DNA of 56,031 nt from the IMG/VR virus record IMGVR_UViG_3300021171_000001, positions 1 to 56,031 of that record. The stretch is one strand, 5' to 3'. Position numbers and translations under genes: made by a program. Below the pieces are notes generated by a model. The model searched no databases and was not told the DNA's origin. It saw only the letters and a program-made list of their open reading frames with translations. Source of the DNA: a virus. Of the stretch, positions 2,281 to 43,788 are shown one piece after another; positions within the stretch are counted from its first letter, which is position 1, and every line of letters begins with the position of its first letter.

Positions 2281-5106
2281 ATGGCTTATCAACCCATCAG
2301 TTCCGGGCCGTGGTTAAAAGGTTTTGTTGCCTCGAATCAGCCTCTCGCGCAACCGAAAGGCTCATTTCCGCGTGGCTCGAATCTCGTATTGATGGAGCGT
2401 GGAGCACTGACCGAGTGCGATGGGTCGGGGATCATCAATTGGTTTTCCGGGGCTGTGCAGAACAATCGTGGCCGGTTTATGAGTACGTTTCTATACGAGC
2501 CGACTGGCGTTAATCCGTATTATCTGGTGCTGGCTCAGGCGCTTGACGAACATCTCGGAGCGCCGCATGCCGTATCAGCTACGGCATCAACTGGCGGAAG
2601 TCTTGTTTCGGGACAGCAGTATTTCTACAAAATTACGGCAATAGATGGTGTGGGTGGAGAAACTACAGTTTCAAATGAGGTAAGTGCCACTCCGTCAGGT
2701 GGAAATCTATCCGTTACGCTTGTTTGGAATGTTGTTCCGAACGCCTTTGGATATAATGTTTACAGGTCTACGACCACCGGAACGGAAGTTCTTCTTTACT
2801 CTGCAAAATTACCAGTAGTACAGCCAAACCCACTGACCGCCACAGTTACGTTCATCGATGACGGAACCGCCGCTGTTGGATCATCGTATTCAGCTACGGC
2901 TTTTGGAAACGTGTTTCCGCTACAAAATTACGTGGATTTCACGACCACGAACCCAGTTTCGGGAATCCCTACAGGAGTTCTGATTGCCACTGGATTTACT
3001 CCTGCCGGTTTCAATATGACTTATGCTAGTTTTGTTCAGAATGGACCGCAATCTTTTACCGCCTTCCGGTCTGGATCGACTCCGACTGGATCGGGCACAG
3101 GTGGAAGTATAGGATTCCAGAGTACACCGCCCGTCAGTGACACAACTCAACAAGTAGTTCTTTTTCAAATGCCCCGTGGAACAGTGATTCCGATTAGCTA
3201 TTCCAATTCAAATATCGTTGCCTTCTTCCCTGCTACCCTGAATCAGCTTGGTCAGATTCCAACTGGCGGCAGTGGGGGAAGAGGAACAACTGGTCCTGGT
3301 ATTAACGGAAGAGGAAGTTCAACTCCGTCTGGTGGAATAGCCGGTCTCGTAGGTCCACTCCCACAGATGAAACAGTTTACAAACCGGGTCTGCATGGCGA
3401 TGGGGAATGGTTTCCCGATGCAGGTTTTTTGGGATTCTACCGGCTCAACGGTAAATTCGGCTCCGACCGGAGCCATCGCTTCGGTTGCTGTTTCTGCTGA
3501 TGAAGTCACCGTTACGGTAACGGGGATCACATTAAGTGCCACAAATCCGTTCGCTGCTGGTTTCCTGCCGGTTGGGGCAAACGTAGTAATCTCGGGAGCG
3601 AGCGATGCGTCCTATAACGGAACCTTCGTCGTAATTTCGGTTCCAAGCAATACTACATTCAAAATTAGAAATACAAGCGCATCCGGTGGGGCTTCGACCG
3701 GCACTTTTACCATTTCTACTACTCCGATAACGACTGCCGACAATACATTCATTCCAGCTTATCCGGCGTGGGCAGCATCGACTCCTGTCATAGTCGGTGA
3801 TATTTATGTTCCAAAAACGCAACCTGGGGCCTCGAATATCTATATCACTTGTATTCAATCAGGGACGACGAATGCGAGTACTGAACCGACGTGGGCAGCA
3901 GTGGCTGCAACTGGACAGTCGTTTCCCACCGGAAATATTGCAGATGGTAGTGCGATTTGGCAGGAAACAGGGTATTTGGCTGCTCCGGCCCCACATGGAG
4001 CAGGGCACATTGAGGTTTACGCCGGATCGCTGTGGGCTTTAAATACCTATCCCATTGGTAGCTCCGATGGCCTAGATGGTCCGACTTCGCTTCGAATGTC
4101 AAATACCAACAACATTTTCGGCTGGAATCCAGTGAATCAGGCGTTCCTCGACAAAGACGACGGCGCGGAAGGGATGGGTCTAGGGAAGTTCACCATCACG
4201 GCACAAGGGATTCCGCCCGAAGGTTCGCTTATTGCTTTCAAATATCGTGTTCCGTATCAGTTGATTGGCGTCTTCGGAGCGAATAACTTCGTGATTCAGC
4301 CGGTTTCGACGGATATGGGCTGTCTCGCTCCGAGATCGATTCAATTCGTTGCTGGTTACGGGTTGATGCGGTACACGCATCTCGGAATTTCAGTTTTCGA
4401 TGGCTGGAAGGATCAGGTTGTCAGCGAACAAGTTAGACCATATTTCTTTCCGGTGAACGATTTCGACGTACAGGATATCGTGGTCGCCGACGCGAACTAT
4501 ATCCCGCTTTCCTGGGGAGCGCAGACGGCGAATCCGCCGATGTACACCATTGCGATACCGATTGGCAATAGTGGTGGTCAACTCACACGCATCATGCTCT
4601 ACGATCTGATCCTAAAATGTTGGGCCGCGCCGGTCGATCTGCCGTTCCCGATTGGAACAATGTCGCAGGTTCAGCCGGTTACGTCGAATCCATTGACGAT
4701 TATCGGCGGTTTCAATGATGGAGCCTTACAACGCTGGCAGACTGGTGACGAGCAATGGTATACGGGCGGTGGAGCGGCTCAAGTCCCAGTTTTATGGTCG
4801 CTTCGAACCATCACTATCGCTTCGCAGAGTTCGAGTCAACGGATTTGGGCACGTAAACTGATTGTACGTGGAACAAATGGAGGAAGCGCCGGGACGATTA
4901 CGGTGCAACCGAGAATGTCGGCGGTAGCACAAGCGGCGGTGAAATATGCAATCCCAGGAAATGGAGATTTCGATCTGTTCGCCGACATAGGACTTACAGG
5001 ATTGCGGTTCGATGCGGTCATTAGCGGAATTGTTGATGTTGAGATCGACGGGATCGATTTTGCAATCGAGCCGAGACCGTTTGGCGTTCCAGTGCAGGCT
5101 GTGTAA
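2281..5106 (+). CDS. Large virion/tail protein with a fibronectin-type-III-like segment
   Basis: 941-aa ORF starting 2 nt after the previous stop. YFYKITAIDGVGGETTVSNEVSATP...GYNVYRSTTTG looks like an Fn3 signature. Confidence 0.6.
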   Translation: MAYQPISSGPWLKGFVASNQPLAQPKGSFPRGSNLVLMERGALTECDGSGIINWFSGAVQNNRGRFMSTFLYEPTGVNPYYLVLAQALDEHLGAPHAVSATASTGGSLVSGQQYFYKITAIDGVGGETTVSNEVSATPSGGNLSVTLVWNVVPNAFGYNVYRSTTTGTEVLLYSAKLPVVQPNPLTATVTFIDDGTAAVGSSYSATAFGNVFPLQNYVDFTTTNPVSGIPTGVLIATGFTPAGFNMTYASFVQNGPQSFTAFRSGSTPTGSGTGGSIGFQSTPPVSDTTQQVVLFQMPRGTVIPISYSNSNIVAFFPATLNQLGQIPTGGSGGRGTTGPGINGRGSSTPSGGIAGLVGPLPQMKQFTNRVCMAMGNGFPMQVFWDSTGSTVNSAPTGAIASVAVSADEVTVTVTGITLSATNPFAAGFLPVGANVVISGASDASYNGTFVVISVPSNTTFKIRNTSASGGASTGTFTISTTPITTADNTFIPAYPAWAASTPVIVGDIYVPKTQPGASNIYITCIQSGTTNASTEPTWAAVAATGQSFPTGNIADGSAIWQETGYLAAPAPHGAGHIEVYAGSLWALNTYPIGSSDGLDGPTSLRMSNTNNIFGWNPVNQAFLDKDDGAEGMGLGKFTITAQGIPPEGSLIAFKYRVPYQLIGVFGANNFVIQPVSTDMGCLAPRSIQFVAGYGLMRYTHLGISVFDGWKDQVVSEQVRPYFFPVNDFDVQDIVVADANYIPLSWGAQTANPPMYTIAIPIGNSGGQLTRIMLYDLILKCWAAPVDLPFPIGTMSQVQPVTSNPLTIIGGFNDGALQRWQTGDEQWYTGGGAAQVPVLWSLRTITIASQSSSQRIWARKLIVRGTNGGSAGTITVQPRMSAVAQAAVKYAIPGNGDFDLFADIGLTGLRFDAVISGIVDVEIDGIDFAIEPRPFGVPVQAV

Positions 5107-5632: not shown

Positions 5633-6031
5633 ATGGCTGGACTTTTAGCCGCTATCGCATCGATTGCGGGCATCGCCGGAGCCGGAACGAGCATTGGTGA
5701 GGCTATTGCCAATTCCGGTGGTCCCCCTAAACCGACTGCAACTCCTACACCAGTCCCAACACCCCCGAATGCGCAGACATTATTGCAGCAACGGGCAGCG
5801 GTTAGTCAGCAAGAACCGAATGTTATCGGCGCTACATCGGGACTCGCGAATCCAGAATATAACTCTTTGATTGCGCAGATTTTAGCAGGTACACTCGGTC
5901 AACCAGGATCGACGGCAGCAGGGAATGCGGCAACGGGTCAAAGTACTTTTACCCCGGCAAATAGTCAACCTACAAACGCAGCGATAAACGGGACACAGAT
6001 CAATTTGTCCGACTTTCTCAGTCAGCAATAG
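5633..6031 (+). CDS. Putative internal virion / ejection protein with a Gly/Ala-rich hydrophobic N-terminus
   Basis: 132-aa ORF; N-terminus MAGLLAAIASIAGIAGAGTSIG; lies downstream of the tail genes as in podovirus layouts; stop is TAG 6029-6031. Confidence 0.4.
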   Translation: MAGLLAAIASIAGIAGAGTSIGEAIANSGGPPKPTATPTPVPTPPNAQTLLQQRAAVSQQEPNVIGATSGLANPEYNSLIAQILAGTLGQPGSTAAGNAATGQSTFTPANSQPTNAAINGTQINLSDFLSQQ

Positions 6032-25721: not shown

Positions 25722-25808
25722 GCCTCTCGGAGCACGTAGGAGCAACCAACACAGCACGTAAAATGTACACTGTCGAGTGAATAGTGTCTAGAACTATGTA
25801 CTTTTTAC

Positions 25809-25837
25809 TTGCTTTTAGTTTTCCCGTGACATAAAAT
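25809..25837 (+). promoter_or_regulatory. Sigma70-like promoter whose -10 box lies 9 nt from ATG 25847 (leaderless design)
   Basis: TTGCTT (25809-25814), 17-nt spacer, TAAAAT (25832-25837); no SD before the ATG. Confidence 0.55.
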
Positions 25838-25846
25838 GGCGCAATT

Positions 25847-26275
25847 ATGAGGAAACAAGCGAACGGTAGACTTGGCGAAGATGCGGTTTATCACTTACTC
25901 TCTACGAGATACGGGCGAGATGTCCACACGGCACCTTACCTGTCCCCGTATGATATCACCATAGACGGGATTCGGGTAGAAGTAAAAACGGCTAAACCCC
26001 GCACCCAAAATGACGGGTATCCGATGCTTAGTTGGACATTTAATATCCATCGGCACGGCAAAATTCCGACAATTCAACCTGATTGCTATCTATTGCGGTT
26101 AGAAGATGTTCCCTATTCGAGCAATGCAATCCATTTGGTGTTTCTCGCTCCCTTGTACCGTCCGACGATTCAAATTAGCATTCGGGCACTACTGGACCAA
26201 AGATACCACGAAGAACGCGAGCAATTTATACGTCTTACTAACGGAACCCTCGTCATACCCTCCCGCACAAAGTAA
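25847..26275 (+). CDS. PD-(D/E)xK nuclease-fold protein (Hjc/restriction-endonuclease-like)
   Basis: GRLGEDAVYHLLSTRYG...SPYDITIDGIRVEVKTAK shows the G-x-x-G-E ... D ... E-V-K arrangement. Confidence 0.5.
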   Translation: MRKQANGRLGEDAVYHLLSTRYGRDVHTAPYLSPYDITIDGIRVEVKTAKPRTQNDGYPMLSWTFNIHRHGKIPTIQPDCYLLRLEDVPYSSNAIHLVFLAPLYRPTIQISIRALLDQRYHEEREQFIRLTNGTLVIPSRTK

Positions 26276-26733: not shown

Positions 26734-27081
26734 ATGGTTTGGACCGCGTACCGAGGAAATAGCGCGGGAGACTTGGAACGCGTGTTTGCGGAGGAAACCG
26801 TGAGCGTATGCCCAACATGCAAGCGAAAAATGCCGAGTCCAAAGCTAACCGAGGATAAGCGGTTAGTGGAAGACAGGCTCAAGGCAAAGCGGTCTCTCGC
26901 GGTACTCGAATCGTGTTTAGGTGACGCGTGGTACTTCGATCTAACGGACGCGATTCGGGACGAACAAGAGAGACTCATTCGCGCCTTGTCGGATTCTCGT
27001 TTGCTTTGGTCTATCTATCGACGTGCCGACAAGGGAAAGCTTCCGCCGTACTACGAGAGAGAGGAAAGCATCGCCGCGTGA
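26734..27081 (+). CDS. Hypothetical protein with a CPTC motif
   Basis: Start uncertain (ATG 26734 or TTG 26695). Confidence 0.4.
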   Translation: MVWTAYRGNSAGDLERVFAEETVSVCPTCKRKMPSPKLTEDKRLVEDRLKAKRSLAVLESCLGDAWYFDLTDAIRDEQERLIRALSDSRLLWSIYRRADKGKLPPYYEREESIAA

Positions 27082-27083
27082 GC

Positions 27084-27123
27084 TTTGCGGGTATGGCACG
27101 TCACAAACCGTGCCAATCCCGGA
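27084..27123 (+). promoter_or_regulatory. Conserved intergenic hairpin element, copy A
   Basis: TTTGCGGGT-at-GGCACG-tcacaaac-CGTGCC-AATCCCGGA. Confidence 0.7.
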
Positions 27124-27168
27124 ACGCGCACAACGTTCCAAATCTGAAACGAATAGGAGCAAACCGAC

Positions 27169-27552
27169 ATGTACGATTTGTATTTTACTTCTTTCGGAGA
27201 ACAGGGAATCACGCAAGCGGGAAGAGACTTTATTCAGTCGATTCTCATTCGCCGTCCCTTGTTTCCGCCACTTGACGTTCGCCTTGCCCGACAAAACGGA
27301 CTCCGAGTGTCGTTCGCGGACAAAGACGCTCTCGACTACGCGGACGTGGACATAACGGATGTTGCTGATCCGGGAAGCACGTCAACGGAAACGGGAGACT
27401 GGAAACCGATGGACGCGCCAATCGGGACTCCGGGATACGCGGACAACGGACGACCGTGTGACGATTTGGAAGACGATTCGCCAGACGAAGCTCTCTGCGA
27501 TTCGATCATGGATGCAGAACTCGATACGGACGGCGAAACGGAGGAAATGTAG
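27169..27552 (+). CDS. Highly acidic early protein
   Basis: 127 aa; RBS TAGGAGCAAACCGAC; the C-terminal half is dominated by Asp/Glu; TAG stop. Confidence 0.6.
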   Translation: MYDLYFTSFGEQGITQAGRDFIQSILIRRPLFPPLDVRLARQNGLRVSFADKDALDYADVDITDVADPGSTSTETGDWKPMDAPIGTPGYADNGRPCDDLEDDSPDEALCDSIMDAELDTDGETEEM

Positions 27553-27555
27553 TCC

Positions 27556-27592
27556 TTTGCGGGTGCGGGATGCCTAACATCCCAATCCCGGA
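27556..27592 (+). promoter_or_regulatory. Conserved intergenic hairpin element, copy B
   Basis: TTTGCGGGT-gc-GGGATG-cctaa-CATCCC-AATCCCGGA. Confidence 0.7.
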
Positions 27593-27629
27593 GGGGATTT
27601 GATCCTTCCAACTAGGAGAAAAACCAAAC

Positions 27630-27818
27630 ATGCCACGTACAAAAGCGAAAGTTACCCCGAAGATGCGCAAGCGGACGCGAGCGACGAATGTGCACGTACA
27701 CATTCATCCGCCTGCACAGCCGTCCGAGGAAGAGAGAGCGGAATTCATGCAGGAACTCGTTGGCTCGAATCCCGATGGTTTGTCGGATGACGGCCCGGAT
27801 TCCGACTCGCTCGCGTAA
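27630..27818 (+). CDS. Small protein with a basic N-terminus and an acidic C-terminus
   Basis: 62 aa; RBS TAGGAGAAAAACCAAAC. Confidence 0.55.
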   Translation: MPRTKAKVTPKMRKRTRATNVHVHIHPPAQPSEEERAEFMQELVGSNPDGLSDDGPDSDSLA

Positions 27819-27898
27819 AGGCGCATTGCCGATAGGACTCCCAAATCGGGAGTCCCTTCGGGAGTGCGCACAAGCATTCCCATAGGAGCAAACCTTGA

Positions 27899-28318
27899 AT
27901 GCTAATCGAGCTTACTAGAAACGGGAAGATTCATGCGTCCACGATGATTCCCAATCCAACGAAGTGCGCGGCAATGCGGACGAAGACGTACCCCTACGCT
28001 GTGCGCATCGAAGCAACGGACAAAAAGCTATCGCCCGAAGGCTATATCTTCAATAACGAGCGAATCCAAAGCTATTTTGATCATCGCTTTGGACACTTAG
28101 CGAAGCCTTGGCACGCGGAGTCATGCGAAAACATGGCTCTTACAGCCTGCCATGAGTTAGCTCAAATCATGCTTAACGAAGGAATCGAGGTTAAGTGTGT
28201 GGAATGTCAGATACTTGGGAGCAATGGAGCGAAGATTCGAGGAATCTGGAATGCCGACAATCGAATGGAGGAAACCAACAGTGACAGGATTCCTGAGAGC
28301 ATTACTCGCGGAATGTGA
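27899..28318 (+). CDS. Hypothetical protein
   Basis: 139 aa; RBS TAGGAGCAAACCTTGA. Only a weak QueD/PTPS-like pattern, without the His triad. Confidence 0.55.
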   Translation: MLIELTRNGKIHASTMIPNPTKCAAMRTKTYPYAVRIEATDKKLSPEGYIFNNERIQSYFDHRFGHLAKPWHAESCENMALTACHELAQIMLNEGIEVKCVECQILGSNGAKIRGIWNADNRMEETNSDRIPESITRGM

Positions 28319-28481
28319 GCGAGAGCACAAAGCGTCGGGAGACACGGGAGACTGGCAAGTCTGGTACGCGGCTTACATGACTCCTAAGCTTTCCGAATGG
28401 CAGGTAAACACATATGGAAGCTTCGCGGGCGAGGTAGCTTGTCCATACAAGGCGGAGACCAATGGCAAAAAGAGCACGTAA
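28251..28481 (+). CDS. Hypothetical protein
   Basis: Start chosen at MPTIEW behind GAGGAATCTGGA; overlaps the previous gene by 68 nt. Confidence 0.4.
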   Translation: MPTIEWRKPTVTGFLRALLAECEREHKASGDTGDWQVWYAAYMTPKLSEWQVNTYGSFAGEVACPYKAETNGKKST

Positions 28482-28665
28482 GTGGGCGATTCGATGCGCC
28501 AAGCGCTGTAAGGGATTCGCGATACGGGCAGGGATCACTTGCCTAGCGGTATTCGCGGTCCTAATCGTCTTGGCGAACACGGGCGAAGCAATCACGGTAG
28601 GGGTAGCGTTCGAGAGATTAGCGGAAGCGCTCGGATACGCTACAGCCGACACGTTAGCGGAGTGA
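28462..28665 (+). CDS. Small membrane protein
   Basis: 67 aa; TM segment GITCLAVFAVLIVLANTG. Confidence 0.5.
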   Translation: MAKRARKWAIRCAKRCKGFAIRAGITCLAVFAVLIVLANTGEAITVGVAFERLAEALGYATADTLAE

Positions 28666-28733
28666 ACGTCCTTCGGAGATTCGGGAAACCGAGTCTCCGG
28701 GGATGCGTTCGAGACGCATCTAGGAGCGAAACA

Positions 28734-29219
28734 ATGGCAAAGAGACTACTTGCGACGTTGAAAGTGTACGAATCGGATGCGGATTGTTTATCCGGTTTGC
28801 AGGTGAAGTATCGGAGCGATACGGGCGAAGTTGATAAGAATTTCGAGTTATTGCTTTGTCCGAAGGGAACAACGGGAAACGGACTCGAACAACGAGACCG
28901 CGTTCAGATCATGGCGCATGAACTCGGACACTTTGTTGGGCACGTACTCGGATTACCGGCGCATCGGGAATCGCGGGAAGCGGGCATTAAAGCGCATTTC
29001 GCGGGATTCGATCATAGCTATACGCGCATGGCACCAGCAGAGCAGGAAGCTTGGAACGTCGGAGAACAGATTGTTCCGGGTGCAATGAACTCGCCCGCAT
29101 ACTTTGTTTCGATGAATGGATATCGCGGGCATGATGCGGAACTCGAAAAGGCCATCGAAGACCTAGCGCCAGAACCCCGAGAATACTTTCGGGAACTCCT
29201 CTTAGGGGGAAACCGATGA
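28734..29219 (+). CDS. HExxH metallopeptidase-like protein 1 (ImmA/IrrE-like motif order)
   Basis: ATG 28734 behind TAGGAGCGAAACA. IMAHELGHFVGH ... AEQEAWNVGEQIVP. Confidence 0.5.
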   Translation: MAKRLLATLKVYESDADCLSGLQVKYRSDTGEVDKNFELLLCPKGTTGNGLEQRDRVQIMAHELGHFVGHVLGLPAHRESREAGIKAHFAGFDHSYTRMAPAEQEAWNVGEQIVPGAMNSPAYFVSMNGYRGHDAELEKAIEDLAPEPREYFRELLLGGNR

Positions 29220-29713
29220 AAACATTAGCTTTTGTAGTGATTGAAATTGATCCGAACGCGAAACCGCAACCGAGTAGCACTAGTCCGATGGGCACAGCGG
29301 TTAATCCGACTACGGGAGAAACGGCACAAGCTTTCCGTATTCAAATCTTCCCGAATGACGTAAACGGCGAAGCATCGAAGCTAACACCGGAAAGCCTGAA
29401 AACGAGTCTCGCGCATGAACTGGGACACGTCGTGGCGAGTCTCGCGCACACCAAAACAAACGCGAATGATCCACGTAGTAAACCGATGGGCAATCGCTGG
29501 ACAGAGCATCCAGCGGAAGCGGTAATCGAATCGGAACGAGAAGCTTGGGAGATAGCGCGTCTGATCGCACCCGATTTGGACGAAGCGGAAGCGAAGCGCA
29601 ATTTCGATAGTTACGCGGACCATAGCGCAGAACTCGATTCAACACTCAAGTCCGCGATTCTCATTGATGCGCTAGTCGATTCGATTGACAAGCTCGGGAA
29701 GGCGGTAAACTGA
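29216..29713 (+). CDS. HExxH metallopeptidase-like protein 2
   Basis: ATGA coupling. SLAHELGHVVASLAH ... SEREAWEIARLIAP. Confidence 0.5.
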   Translation: MKTLAFVVIEIDPNAKPQPSSTSPMGTAVNPTTGETAQAFRIQIFPNDVNGEASKLTPESLKTSLAHELGHVVASLAHTKTNANDPRSKPMGNRWTEHPAEAVIESEREAWEIARLIAPDLDEAEAKRNFDSYADHSAELDSTLKSAILIDALVDSIDKLGKAVN

Positions 29714-29803
29714 ATGACAATCGGATGGATTGCGTTAGGGATAGCGGCAATTCCGGTAATCGGATGCTTAGTTTGGCATCTTCGGATACGCTTTCCCGGT
29801 TGA
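29714..29803 (+). CDS. 29-aa single-TM peptide
   Basis: Translated by hand: MTIGWIALGIAAIPVIGCLVWHLRIRFPG. The ATG directly follows stop 29711-29713. Confidence 0.35.
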   Translation: MTIGWIALGIAAIPVIGCLVWHLRIRFPG

Positions 29804-29810
29804 TTCTGTC

Positions 29811-29848
29811 TTGCGGGTGCGGCATTCGGAAACGGTGCCAATCCCGGA
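29811..29848 (+). promoter_or_regulatory. Conserved intergenic hairpin element, copy C
   Basis: TTGCGGGT-gc-GGCA-ttcggaaacgg-TGCC-AATCCCGGA. The 3-prime flank continues into the GGAGG RBS of ATG 29859. Confidence 0.7.
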
Positions 29849-29858
29849 GGATAGACGA

Positions 29859-30059
29859 ATGAAAAGAGAATATAAGACACCGGAAGCGAACAGGATTGCG
29901 AGCGCACGGCAATTTTACGAAATGGGACTCGCATGGCGATGGATTCGGAAGCATCGGCCCGACATCGAGCAAATCATTCGGGCCGAAGGATTTAAGAAGT
30001 ATCCGGCATCAAAACGACCTAGTTTGATGTTGCCTAAGTCATTGGAGACATTAGAGTAA
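29859..30059 (+). CDS. Hypothetical basic protein
   Basis: MKREYKTPEANRIASARQFYEMGLAWRWIRKHRPD...; RBS GGAGG 8 nt upstream. Confidence 0.55.
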   Translation: MKREYKTPEANRIASARQFYEMGLAWRWIRKHRPDIEQIIRAEGFKKYPASKRPSLMLPKSLETLE

Positions 30060-30072
30060 ATCGGAGGATAGA

Positions 30073-30249
30073 ATGCGCACGGCGCTTGCAACGCTCTTGG
30101 TAGCGGCTTGGTTCTACATGCCGAAGATTCGACACGCGAAATGGGACGGTAAACGGTTTAACTGTCCTATTAACACTGACCTATGGGCCGATGAAAGCGA
30201 AGCATTGGCAGGGAAAGATTACGTCTATTGCATCTCGGAACGTCGATAA
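30073..30249 (+). CDS. 58-aa hypothetical protein with a hydrophobic N-terminus
   Basis: Translated by hand: MRTALATLLVAAWFYMPKIRHAKWDGKRFNCPINTDLWADESEALAGKDYVYCISERR; RBS GGAGGATAGA. Confidence 0.45.
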   Translation: MRTALATLLVAAWFYMPKIRHAKWDGKRFNCPINTDLWADESEALAGKDYVYCISERR

Positions 30250-30529: not shown

Positions 30530-30777
30530 ACGCCAAACCTCACGCAAAGCGTACTAGCGCGGCCACTATTGCTCACATCGCGAGACTTAGGCGCATGAGT
30601 GAAGAGGAGCGTAAGGCTTGGGGTATGCGTCTGTTCGCAATCTATAGCGGACGTAAGACTCAAGAAATGTATAGGTTACGAGGTATTGATGCGATGGCGC
30701 ACGCACGCAAGTTCCGATGGCCGAATAAAGACGGTCACGTGAAGGCGAAGCGCAGCAAAGTACTGCCGATTGCGTAA
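30526..30777 (+). CDS. Hypothetical basic protein
   Basis: 83-aa ORF with TTG start. Confidence 0.4.
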   Translation: MNAKPHAKRTSAATIAHIARLRRMSEEERKAWGMRLFAIYSGRKTQEMYRLRGIDAMAHARKFRWPNKDGHVKAKRSKVLPIA

Positions 30778-30997: not shown

Positions 30998-31064
30998 GTA
31001 ATACGAATTTGCTTGACAACGTAATACGGCTGTGTAATACGGTAATACCGATGGCGCGTAATAC
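30998..31064 (+). promoter_or_regulatory. Promoter with five GTAATAC heptamers (candidate operator array) around the start of the RHH gene
   Basis: GTAATAC at 30998, 31021, 31034, 31042 and 31058. TTGACA 31013-31018, 16-nt spacer, TAATAC 31035-31040, ATG 31051. Confidence 0.55.
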
Positions 31065-43257: not shown

Positions 43258-43722
43258 ATGACATAGATTCCTGAATCCTACGTTTATATTTTCATCAGGA
43301 CCGATCTTCCGGTCGAGCATCAAATCGTCCAATCAAATCACGCTATTTTCCATCTCGCACTCGAACATGCCGGTATTCAGGGTGTGCCCAATATTGTCCT
43401 GATCGGCATTCCTAATGTGAAGAGTCTCGCCCGCGTCGAACGAAAACTACAAGAGAATCAAATCCAGCACTACAGTTGGCATGAGCCGGATAACGATATG
43501 GGATTTACGGCGATTGCGACGGTTCCGCTTCGAGGCGAGATTCGGAAGCTAATGGAGAATTATCGACTTTACCCACGTTCCCCTCGTATAAGCGTATGTA
43601 CACCCGCCTCTACAGCGGGTAGTCCAGGTATAAGCCCTGGGGGGAGCGCCATGCCGGACGGTGGGAGGCATCTCACCTCACTTGAATGTGAGTCCGGCTC
43701 CAATTCGACTGAGCGCCCGTAG
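43258..43722 (+). CDS. Peptidyl-tRNA hydrolase 2 (Pth2)-like ORF with an in-frame TAG as codon 3 (43264-43266) and no stop at the family C-terminus
   Basis: ATG ACA TAG, then IPESYVYIFIRTDLPVEHQIVQSNHAIF...NIVLIGIPN...EPDNDMGFTAIATVPL...NYRLY. The track ORF (GTG 43384) would lack the R-x-DL/Q-x-x-HA third. The frame runs on through tRNA-like 1 to TAG 43720. Confidence 0.5.
43577..43651 (+). tRNA. tRNA-like gene 1, anticodon CUA (amber-suppressor candidate), encoded CCA
   Basis: Hand fold: acceptor GTTCCCC/GGGGAGC; D stem GTAT/GTAC; anticodon stem CCCGC/GCGGG; loop cTCTAca; T stem CCAGG/CCTGG; G73; CCA. The D and T loops are non-canonical (no GG; T loop TATAAGC) and position 37 is C. Confidence 0.55.
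43654..43697 (+). ncRNA. Three-way-junction RNA element between the two tRNA-like genes
   Basis: P1 CCGGAC/GTCCGG encloses P2 GGTGGGA-ggca-TCTCACC (7 bp) and P3 TCAC-ttgaat-GTGA, with no unpaired linkers. Confidence 0.4.
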
Positions 43723-43788
43723 CTCAACATGCAGAGCAACGGACTCTAAAGCCGGGGGTTGTGGGCGCAAATCCCACCGGGCGCTCCA
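43713..43788 (+). tRNA. tRNA-like gene 2, anticodon CUA (amber-suppressor candidate), encoded CCA
   Basis: Hand fold: acceptor GCGCCCG/CGGGCGC; D stem GCTC/GAGC; anticodon loop cTCTAaa; T stem GTGGG/CCCAC; U73; CCA. The anticodon stem has only 3 Watson-Crick pairs and the T loop is CGCAAAT. Confidence 0.5.

Follow-up and report, generated by a model that had tools for sequence, protein, structure and literature searches.

A repeated, bistable mRNA structure at cistron boundaries in the early operon of a 56-kb phage and its soil relatives

T7 and T4-like phages have structured RNAs between their early genes, and few such RNAs have been defined beyond model phages. The T7 early RNase III signals (R0.3, R0.5, R1, R1.1 and R1.3) are related intercistronic hairpins in a host-transcribed early operon, with about two helical turns, an internal loop, no U-tract, conserved nucleotides flanking the loop and stems that differ, all of which they share with the element described here. 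In ermC-type attenuation, a ribosome occupies segment 1, so that segments 2 and 3 can pair with each other and the Shine-Dalgarno (SD) sequence in segment 4 is set free. Translational coupling by RNA unfolding is an established model, with f1 VII/IX and the MS2 coat-lysis and coat-replicase pairs as examples, where an upstream ribosome opens a structure that occludes the next ribosome-binding site (RBS) (PMC12548453). The PeSL (promoter-early stem-loop) cassettes of T4-type phages combine a strong sigma70 promoter with a terminator stem-loop (Arbiol et al. 2010, PMC2839356). Here we analyze a hairpin that is repeated between genes of a 56,031-bp viral DNA (IMG/VR record IMGVR_UViG_3300021171_000001, analyzed over its whole length and called the window below), and find that it is the core of a larger, selected, bistable mRNA structure.

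A sequence-only reading of this DNA had described three copies of the hairpin, with constant flanks and with inner stems that differ and stay complementary. The pattern TTGCGGGT-N(19-22)-AATCCCGG matches the window exactly three times, always on the + strand, and not once in 100 shuffles:
27085-27122, + strand: pattern match in copy A
27557-27591, + strand: pattern match in copy B
29811-29847, + strand: pattern match in copy C
The inner stems (GGCACG/CGTGCC, GGGATG/CATCCC and GGCA/TGCC) are as reported, and each of the three copies folds at about -21 kcal/mol (z-scores -2.5 to -3.9). The copies do begin shortly after a stop codon (the in-frame stop ends 3, 4 and 7 nucleotides (nt) before TTG), and the 3' flank of copy C is indeed an RBS, since GGAGGA (29846-29851) serves the ATG at 29859. 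The number of copies and their extent needed revision. A fourth copy, D, with its core at 27835-27855, had been placed among different hairpins at other junctions of the block; it shares the family architecture, with CCGA/UCGG as its outer helix, and only for the junction called E below (no match to model R2) does the distinction hold. The helix also extends 9–10 nt further on each side, taking in the stop codon, and the GGA of the 3' flank is at the same time the start of another conserved hairpin, HP2.

Relatives of the window were found via a neighboring protein of 165 amino acids (aa) with an HExxH motif:
G003 (IMG/VR): syntenic genome, 92% identity to the 165-aa protein
G001 (IMG/VR): syntenic genome, 63% identity
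G005 (IMG/VR): syntenic genome, 45% identity
L238 (soil contig): syntenic fragment, 68% identity
L240 (soil contig): syntenic fragment, 49% identity
Two covariance models were built, R1 from nine copies and R2 from 17 instances. According to R1, there are three copies in each of G003, G001 and G005 and none in the more distant G004 and G006. R2 recovers its own training members and nothing more: the window, G003 and G001 contain four copies apiece, G005 contains three, and L238 and L240 have a single copy each, every one of them on the coding strand inside the early block; those genomes hold no further match, and neither do G004, G006 and G007. The covariance-model scan of related phages, which had been proposed as a check, returned further covarying homologues, and the earlier argument that covariation points to a selected single-strand structure is strengthened by the 17 instances.

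Alignment A3 of these instances (four phage genomes and two soil contigs), in which the helix extension was seen by folding with more flanking sequence, defines fold X, a 53–54-nt irregular hairpin on the sense mRNA. From the base upward it consists of P(-1) with 5–6 bp, a one-position mismatch, P1a (UU/AR), an invariant G.G mismatch, P1b with 4 bp, an invariant U.U plus one or two more mismatches, a hypervariable P2 with 6–8 bp, and a loop with 2–11 nt; its 19 pairs and 4–5 mismatch levels add up to 22–24 helical levels. Nine positions are invariant in 17/17 rows (U11, U12, G13, C14, U18, U48, G52, G53 and A54), and there are always 9 or 10 levels from P1b to the apical loop, while P2 sequence and loop size are free. 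The gap between the conserved flanks ranges from 19 to 29 nt. The outer helix CGGG/CCCG described earlier exists in the three window copies and is not invariant, as P1b reads CGGA/UCCG in G005, CGCG/CGCG in L238, CUCG/CGAG in L240 and CCGA/UCGG in copy D.

Pairing in fold X is found in 93.1% of 321 cells as compared to 68.5% in column shuffles, a level that 0/500 shuffles reach; 16 of the 19 pairs are changed on both sides, and compensatory cells number 75 (23.5 expected). With a mixture of paralogous and orthologous rows, the count of shuffles cannot be taken as a probability, but the slid controls (partners moved by 1–3 columns, 30–57% paired) and the range of pair types (e.g. GC 8, CG 4, GU 4 and AU 1 for pair 6-60) are still convincing. 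An RNA or single-stranded DNA structure had been suggested; the RNA part stands, and single-stranded DNA or a cruciform is disfavored, since G.U cells outnumber A.C cells (24 versus 9) and the + strand is paired better than its complement (93.1% versus 88.5%), which favors sense RNA. We consider it highly probable that the element is a post-transcriptional sense-RNA element located at cistron boundaries.

Within the window, the modules and their HP2 hairpins are as follows:
27078..27131, + strand: module A, fold X, R2 score 63.3 bits
27121..27139, + strand: HP2 of module A (GGAACG/CGUUCC, 7-nt loop), mutually exclusive with P1a and P(-1)
27550..27600, + strand: module B, fold X, R2 score 59.8 bits
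27590..27609, + strand: HP2 of module B (GGAGGGG/UCCUUCC)
27819..27871, + strand: module D, fold X, R1 score 18.5 bits and R2 score 60.7 bits (the latter is not an independent test, because D is a training row of R2)
27860..27881, + strand: HP2 of module D (GGGAGUGC/GCAUUCCC)
29804..29856, + strand: module C, fold X without HP2, R2 score 60.0 bits
In module A, P(-1) (GUGAGC/GCGCAC) holds the UGA stop (27079-27081), and above it lie P1a (UU/AA), the G.G mismatch, P1b (CGGG/CCCG), an internal loop of U.U and A.A, and P2 (UGGCACG/CGUGCCA) with an 8-nt loop; HP2 is followed by an A-rich linker, the SD AGGAG (27155-27159) and an ATG at 27169. Module B has P(-1) UAGUCC/GGAUUU with the UAG stop (27550-27552), P1b CGGG/CCCG, a 3x3 internal loop (UGC/AAU) and P2 GGGAUG/CAUCCC, and its HP2 precedes an AGGAG at 27614-27618 and an ATG at 27630. 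The stop UAA of module D (27816-27818) abuts the helix, in which P1b is compensatorily changed (to CCGA/UCGG), the U.U mismatch is kept and P2 is GGACUCCC/GGGAGUCC; AGGAG at 27884-27888 and an ATG at 27899 come after HP2. Module C is also abutted by its stop (UGA, 29801-29803), and its 5' strand UCUGUCUU pairs with AGGAUAGA, i.e. with most of the SD (AGGA) and the spacer. The U.U of the internal loop is at 27092/27117 in A, 27564/27586 in B, 27833/27857 in D and 29818/29842 in C.

HP2 follows P1b directly in every A-, B- and D-type module and is itself followed by an A-rich linker, AGGAG and the start codon, while the C-type copies (in the window, G003, G001 and L238) are without it. Its base GGA/UCC is constant and its interior covaries (AACG, AACGU, AACGG, AGGGG, AGC, AGUG, AGUGC or AAUGC), with 98.2% of cells paired versus 85.8% in shuffles, nine compensatory cells, and 0/500 shuffles reaching this level. 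Since the nucleotides of the HP2 5' arm are those of the P1a 3' strand and of the beginning of P(-1), HP2 and the base of fold X are mutually exclusive, and the RNA is therefore bistable. By constrained folding, fold X and fold Y (HP1 plus HP2) differ by -4.8 to +2 kcal/mol in nine out of ten modules (the energy of the tenth was a script artefact and was left out). A UUUG/CAAA closing helix, considered for a three-way junction of the A type, was seen in some copies only and was dropped.

The element belongs to no family in Rfam: at gathering thresholds the whole window yields only a tRNA (43713-43785), and a permissive scan of 26900-30100 up to E = 10 gave no match. Flank-pattern scans of IMG/VR returned almost exclusively single chance matches, of which an inner-stem filter left only true relatives. 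With a 20-nt flank pattern, 185,579 species genomes gave 24 matches, about our own chance estimate, with 20–30 bits that come from the flanks alone and with the best one in an apparently ABC-transporter-like coding sequence; these chance-level matches give no host or prophage lead. A weak match at L238:273-320 corresponds to the 3' end of a coding sequence and folds differently, and a 22-bit match in contig L141, located among iteron-like GGAACA repeats, does not belong to the family. The repeat region (positions 626-860 of L141, IMGVR_UViG_3300049459_000188, an unrelated phage) is a dense GGAACA/TGTTCC array that looks iteron- or origin-like. We conclude that the modules form a small new RNA family restricted to one soil-phage clade, of a general kind (structured punctuation between phage early genes) that is known.

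The position of the modules relative to the translation signals is nearly constant. In 16 of the 17 instances the upstream in-frame stop ends 3–7 nt before the invariant UUG, and so lies within or directly before the 5' strand of P(-1). The exception is copy B of G001 (contig L234, around 5735-5760), where the open reading frame (ORF) is truncated by a TAA 19 nt upstream and the old AUGUAGUAGUCC is kept as a pairing partner; the former C-terminal codons and stop (AUGUAGUAG) are retained as the basal 5' strand, thus for pairing and not for coding. In the four C-type copies, the SD and its spacer make up the 3' strand of P1a and P(-1), and the 5' strand (UCUGUCUU, GCCUGC.UU or CCUAC.UU) changes in concert with them, with covarying pairs to the SD spacer in G001 and L238. 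When the 5' strand is modelled as occupied, the unpaired probability of the SD rises from 0.26–0.38 to 0.56–0.75 in the C-type copies (from 0.26 to 0.73 in module C), and it rises from 0.03–0.04 to 0.23–0.47 in L240_x and G001_D.

The reading that we tentatively favor, at somewhat less than an even chance, is that the module is a coupler, in which a terminating ribosome opens the basal helix and thereby frees or repositions the next RBS. A terminating ribosome opens the mRNA about 5 nt past its A-site codon and covers about 9 nt (ribosomal helicase). P1b begins 6–10 nt past the stop, at the edge of the mRNA channel, and therefore a ribosome that reaches the stop codon would unwind exactly P(-1) and P1a. 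In copy C this would directly release the SD and spacer that form the 3' strand of the helix. In A, B and D, the released 3' strand (GGAAC...) would snap into HP2 and sequester an anti-SD-like arm (..UUCC), and the two compact hairpins would leave the real SD free and spatially near the terminating ribosome. Downstream translation would in this way be tied to upstream completion across a spacer of 80–90 nt, and the module may serve as a standard junction for plugging in new genes. Taken together, the fourth copy, the inclusion of the stop codon, HP2 and the SD pairing, all previously missed, make coupling at least as likely as the roles put forward earlier.

A further structure in the same block bears on coupling without being a member of the family:
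28669..28725, + strand: junction E, a three-way junction (-34.2 kcal/mol, z -5.97)
Its helix P0 is formed by UCCU, 3 nt after the stop UGA (28663-28665), and the SD AGGA (28722-28725) before the ATG at 28734. Within P0 lie two hairpins, one with 12 bp and a GAAA loop and one with 9 bp that resembles HP2 (GGAUGCGUU/GACGCAUCU). Junction E has orthologues with different stems in G001, G003, L238, L239, L240 and G004, and these six relatives carry an anti-SD-like tetramer at the position of UCCU (read by eye, the pairing with the SD being only presumed).

Copy C and junction E, where the downstream RBS is paired with the strand at the upstream ORF end, fit unfolding of the f1 and MS2 type directly, while in A, B and D the link is indirect, through the relay hairpin HP2 in place of direct SD pairing. 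The structures of f1 and MS2 are also one-off, whereas the module is repeated three to four times per genome across a phage clade, spans 80–90-nt spacers and has invariant mismatches. For A, B and D the proposed logic is the four-segment one of ermC-type attenuation, except that the trigger there is drug-induced stalling on a leader peptide and here would be normal termination at the stop of a full gene, and that the 1:2 helix is here bridged by a stable inserted hairpin (P1b plus P2).

Several observations weigh against coupling. The proposed anti-SD:SD helix has only 4–5 bp, and the strong SDs of the downstream genes (AGGAG) could initiate unaided. In the modules of the A, B and D types the modelled shifts in SD accessibility are small or inconsistent (0.29 to 0.34 in win_B, 0.50 to 0.30 in win_D and 0.80 to 0.63 in G005_b) and vary with the extent of the 5' strand that is masked, which is why the HP2 relay in A, B and D is something that we infer. 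Copy B of G001 has kept the structure with its stop 19 nt upstream. Coupling also gives no reason for U.U and G.G to be invariant, for P1b to be conserved in sequence between close relatives or for the upper stem to have a constant 9–10 levels.

The invariant mismatches and the constant upper stem are what an RNase III-type processing or stability signal, suggested in the earlier reading and the main rival, a serious though less likely candidate, would account for. Host RNase III or another double-strand-specific endonuclease would cut fold X at or beside the internal loop, so that the upstream cistron ends in a protective P2 hairpin and the downstream RNA begins with CCCGGAAC..., with HP2 as a protective 5' hairpin and the SD free; the early polycistronic RNA would be cut into gene-sized pieces as in T7, where the cut leaves a stabilizing 3' hairpin (PMC3867540). 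An idealized RNase III substrate has 22 bp, and mismatches or internal loops in targets give single-strand cuts that leave stabilizing 3' hairpins (PMC3867540). Fold X, with its 22–24 levels and an internal loop 9–10 levels below the apical loop, agrees with a helix of about 20–22 bp (22 bp in PMC3867540). The distance from P1b to the loop is constant in 17/17 instances despite a free P2 and loop, and U18, U48, G13 and G53, invariant in all 17, suggest one common recognizing factor. Like the five T7 signals, the four copies lie between cistrons of one early operon; HP2 starts directly after P1b in every module that has it, and there is no U-tract. Speaking against processing, the lower stem, with two single mismatches among its 12 pairs, is highly irregular, a nuclease site needs neither tight anchoring on a stop codon nor inclusion of an SD, and nothing resembles any Rfam family. 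As no phage-encoded RNase III or double-stranded RNA-binding domain protein was found in the window genome, a host enzyme has to be assumed. The modules further differ from the T7 signals in showing no sequence or Rfam similarity to them, in having the stop codon in the helix, the SD in copy C, the competitor HP2 and two conserved single mismatches in the lower stem, and in that cleavage is here only putative. The coupling reading accounts for the anchoring on the stop codon and SD, and the processing reading for the invariant mismatches and the ruler-like upper stem; both may be at work.

A more specific form of coupling, which we regard as unlikely but worth stating, would bring the invariant mismatches into the mechanism. 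The module would be a portable termination sensor, a bistable RNA whose basal helix fits the distance that a ribosome halted at the stop codon reaches downstream. On termination, fold X would flip to HP1 plus HP2, the ribosome or a fresh 30S subunit would be passed to the adjacent RBS, and the extent of unzipping would be fixed by the invariant U.U and G.G mismatches.

The invariant mismatches and the constant length of an upper stem that is free in sequence could also reflect a non-nuclease RNA-binding protein, from phage or host, that reads P1b framed by G.G and U.U at a fixed distance from the loop and regulates the translation or decay of early genes (e.g. in early shut-off). The flanks are identical even where the neighboring gene has only 45% amino-acid identity, and the early genes, all ORFans, could include a regulator. 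We hold this to be improbable, since P1b covaries in the more distant relatives (CGCG, CUCG/CGAG, CGGA/UCCG, CCGA/UCGG), so that sequence-specific reading is not strict, dual pairing (of GGA in HP2, of UU in P1a) accounts for some of the invariant sequence, and no candidate protein was identified.

A role in transcription is less probable still. Such a signal would be a factor-dependent terminator or pause, or an antitermination RNA like put or nut, and the presence of stable hairpins within the early operon speaks for it, as does a loose resemblance to the two-hairpin layout of HK022 put. Also in its favor, canonical U-tract terminators (e.g. AAGCCTATCG...CGATAGGCTTTTCC) in G004 (contigs L125 and L237) and in L239 stand directly after the HExxH gene, before divergent genes, and end the operon at the position equivalent to copy C. 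The same terminators indicate that the host uses ordinary U-tract termination, and neither fold X (followed by GGAACG...) nor HP2 (followed by AAAUCUGA...) has a U-tract behind it; the terminator scan lists no copy, so that the termination signal suggested earlier is not borne out and an intrinsic terminator was rejected. The loops (2–11 nt, any sequence) are not conserved, unlike boxB, and there are four stop-anchored copies 1.2–4 kb from the promoter (A at 1.2 kb) and not one promoter-proximal copy. The lambda nut (boxA/boxB) and HK022 put sites were set aside as specific models for the variable loops and for the four copies per operon, each at a stop codon.

Other known elements were considered and rejected. 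Promoter readings of the flanks (TTGCGG as a -35 box, an ECF-type GGAAC...TCTGA, TGGCAC as a sigma54 box) miss the second box or the spacing in most copies. Hairpin promoters of the N4 type (a 5–7-bp hairpin with a conserved 3-nt loop, used by a virion RNA polymerase) do not fit loops of 2–11 nt that are not conserved, and no RNA polymerase gene was found among the 30 larger window ORFs scanned. Self-cleaving ribozymes (hammerhead, twister, pistol, hatchet) left no Rfam signal and have no conserved core here, and tRNA-like minihelices (t-elements) would require a UUCRANY-type loop, which is missing from loops that are mutually unrelated in sequence.

Gene content changes at the modules, as seen directly behind module C:
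29855..30068, + strand: one-gene cassette of 214 bp with a 66-aa ORF (29859-30059), alignment A6
The cassette is bounded by a 10-bp direct repeat, GGAGGATAGA (29846-29855 and 30064-30073); G003 and L238 carry the empty site, and the ORF has no homologue in the relatives. G003 has an extra 66-aa gene behind copy D, and in its copy B (contig L123, around 4590-4690) an insertion of about 50 nt in the HP2 loop makes a long hairpin that keeps the base GGAACGG/CCGUUCC. A copy in G005 separates two HExxH genes that overlap in the window. Copy B of G003 resembles a hybrid of A and C, which suggests gene conversion, and by these comparisons the modules behave as reusable junctions. One could take the insertions, the displaced copy and the hybrid as signs of a DNA-level element (a recombination cassette boundary, a promoter, or a cruciform or single-stranded DNA site) with an incidental RNA fold. 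We find this very unlikely: the compensatory changes, together with the excess of G.U, demonstrate that a fold of the single + strand is under selection. The flank spacing of 19–29 nt is incompatible with a two-box protein site, the conserved flanks of 8–9 nt are too short for homologous recombination, and no sigma70-like promoter exists at any copy (+ strand, 27000-29900). The gene flux is better seen as a consequence of the repeated junctions than as their function. In being short conserved elements between small ORFan early genes, with gene gain and loss, the modules are similar to PeSL cassettes, but they lack the promoter-like site (in the + strand interval just given) and the terminator tail of these and are, as we read them, structures of the mRNA linked with stop and start signals.

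The window represents a whole phage genome (56 kb), whose two ends carry direct terminal repeats with 127 identical bp. Profile matches point to a tailed phage (portal of the P22/SU10 type, intein-bearing large terminase, major head protein) and include an ERF recombinase, an RNA ligase and a sugar-modification block; the largest ORFs are the intein-bearing terminase with 947 aa and one with 941 aa that is without a family match. The genes of the first 16.5 kb or so lie on the + strand, those that follow, up to 25,570, on the - strand, and those from 25,847 onward on the + strand again. The early operon is the + strand block from the gene at 25847 to a TAA at 30775-30777, and protein annotation of ten neighboring early ORFs gave nothing informative. 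A candidate promoter precedes it:
25809..25837, + strand: sigma70-like early promoter (TTGCTT, 17 nt, TAAAAT), by consensus match only, ending 9 nt before the ATG at 25847
Only at about 31,015, beyond a 270-nt gap, does another promoter-like region follow, so all modules lie inside one early transcription unit.

We also noted features around this operon. In the divergent promoter region, an SD-like GTAGGAGCAACCAAC at 25733-25760, upstream of a 5-codon ORF (ATG 25764), is similar to the module-associated RBS context ATAGGAGCAAACC. Two adjacent, overlapping early genes at 28734-29713 encode proteins of 161 and 165 aa, each with AHELGH (an HExxH metallopeptidase-like motif); the two are 19% identical to each other, and only the second is widely kept in relatives. 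Beyond the operon, five direct copies of GTAATAC occur within 67 nt at 30998-31064 (+ strand), around a TTGACA/TAATAC promoter-like site before the gene at 31051; there are 12 copies genome-wide as compared to 2.7 expected, and the cluster resembles a set of operators at which a phage regulator could control the next transcription unit.

The module is a defined element of 60–100 nt, a covariation-supported motif absent from Rfam, in which two mutually exclusive helices both show compensatory change and into which the stop codon of one gene and the SD of the next are built. If it is a nuclease site, T7-style punctuation of mRNA extends to an unrelated soil phage lineage. If it is a termination sensor, it would provide plug-in coupling over long spacers, and orphan genes would be insertable behind any module without re-tuning. 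If it is a coupler, synthetic operons could reuse it as a part with which expression is balanced, and it would explain how expression in phages is kept working amid the shuffling of orphan genes.

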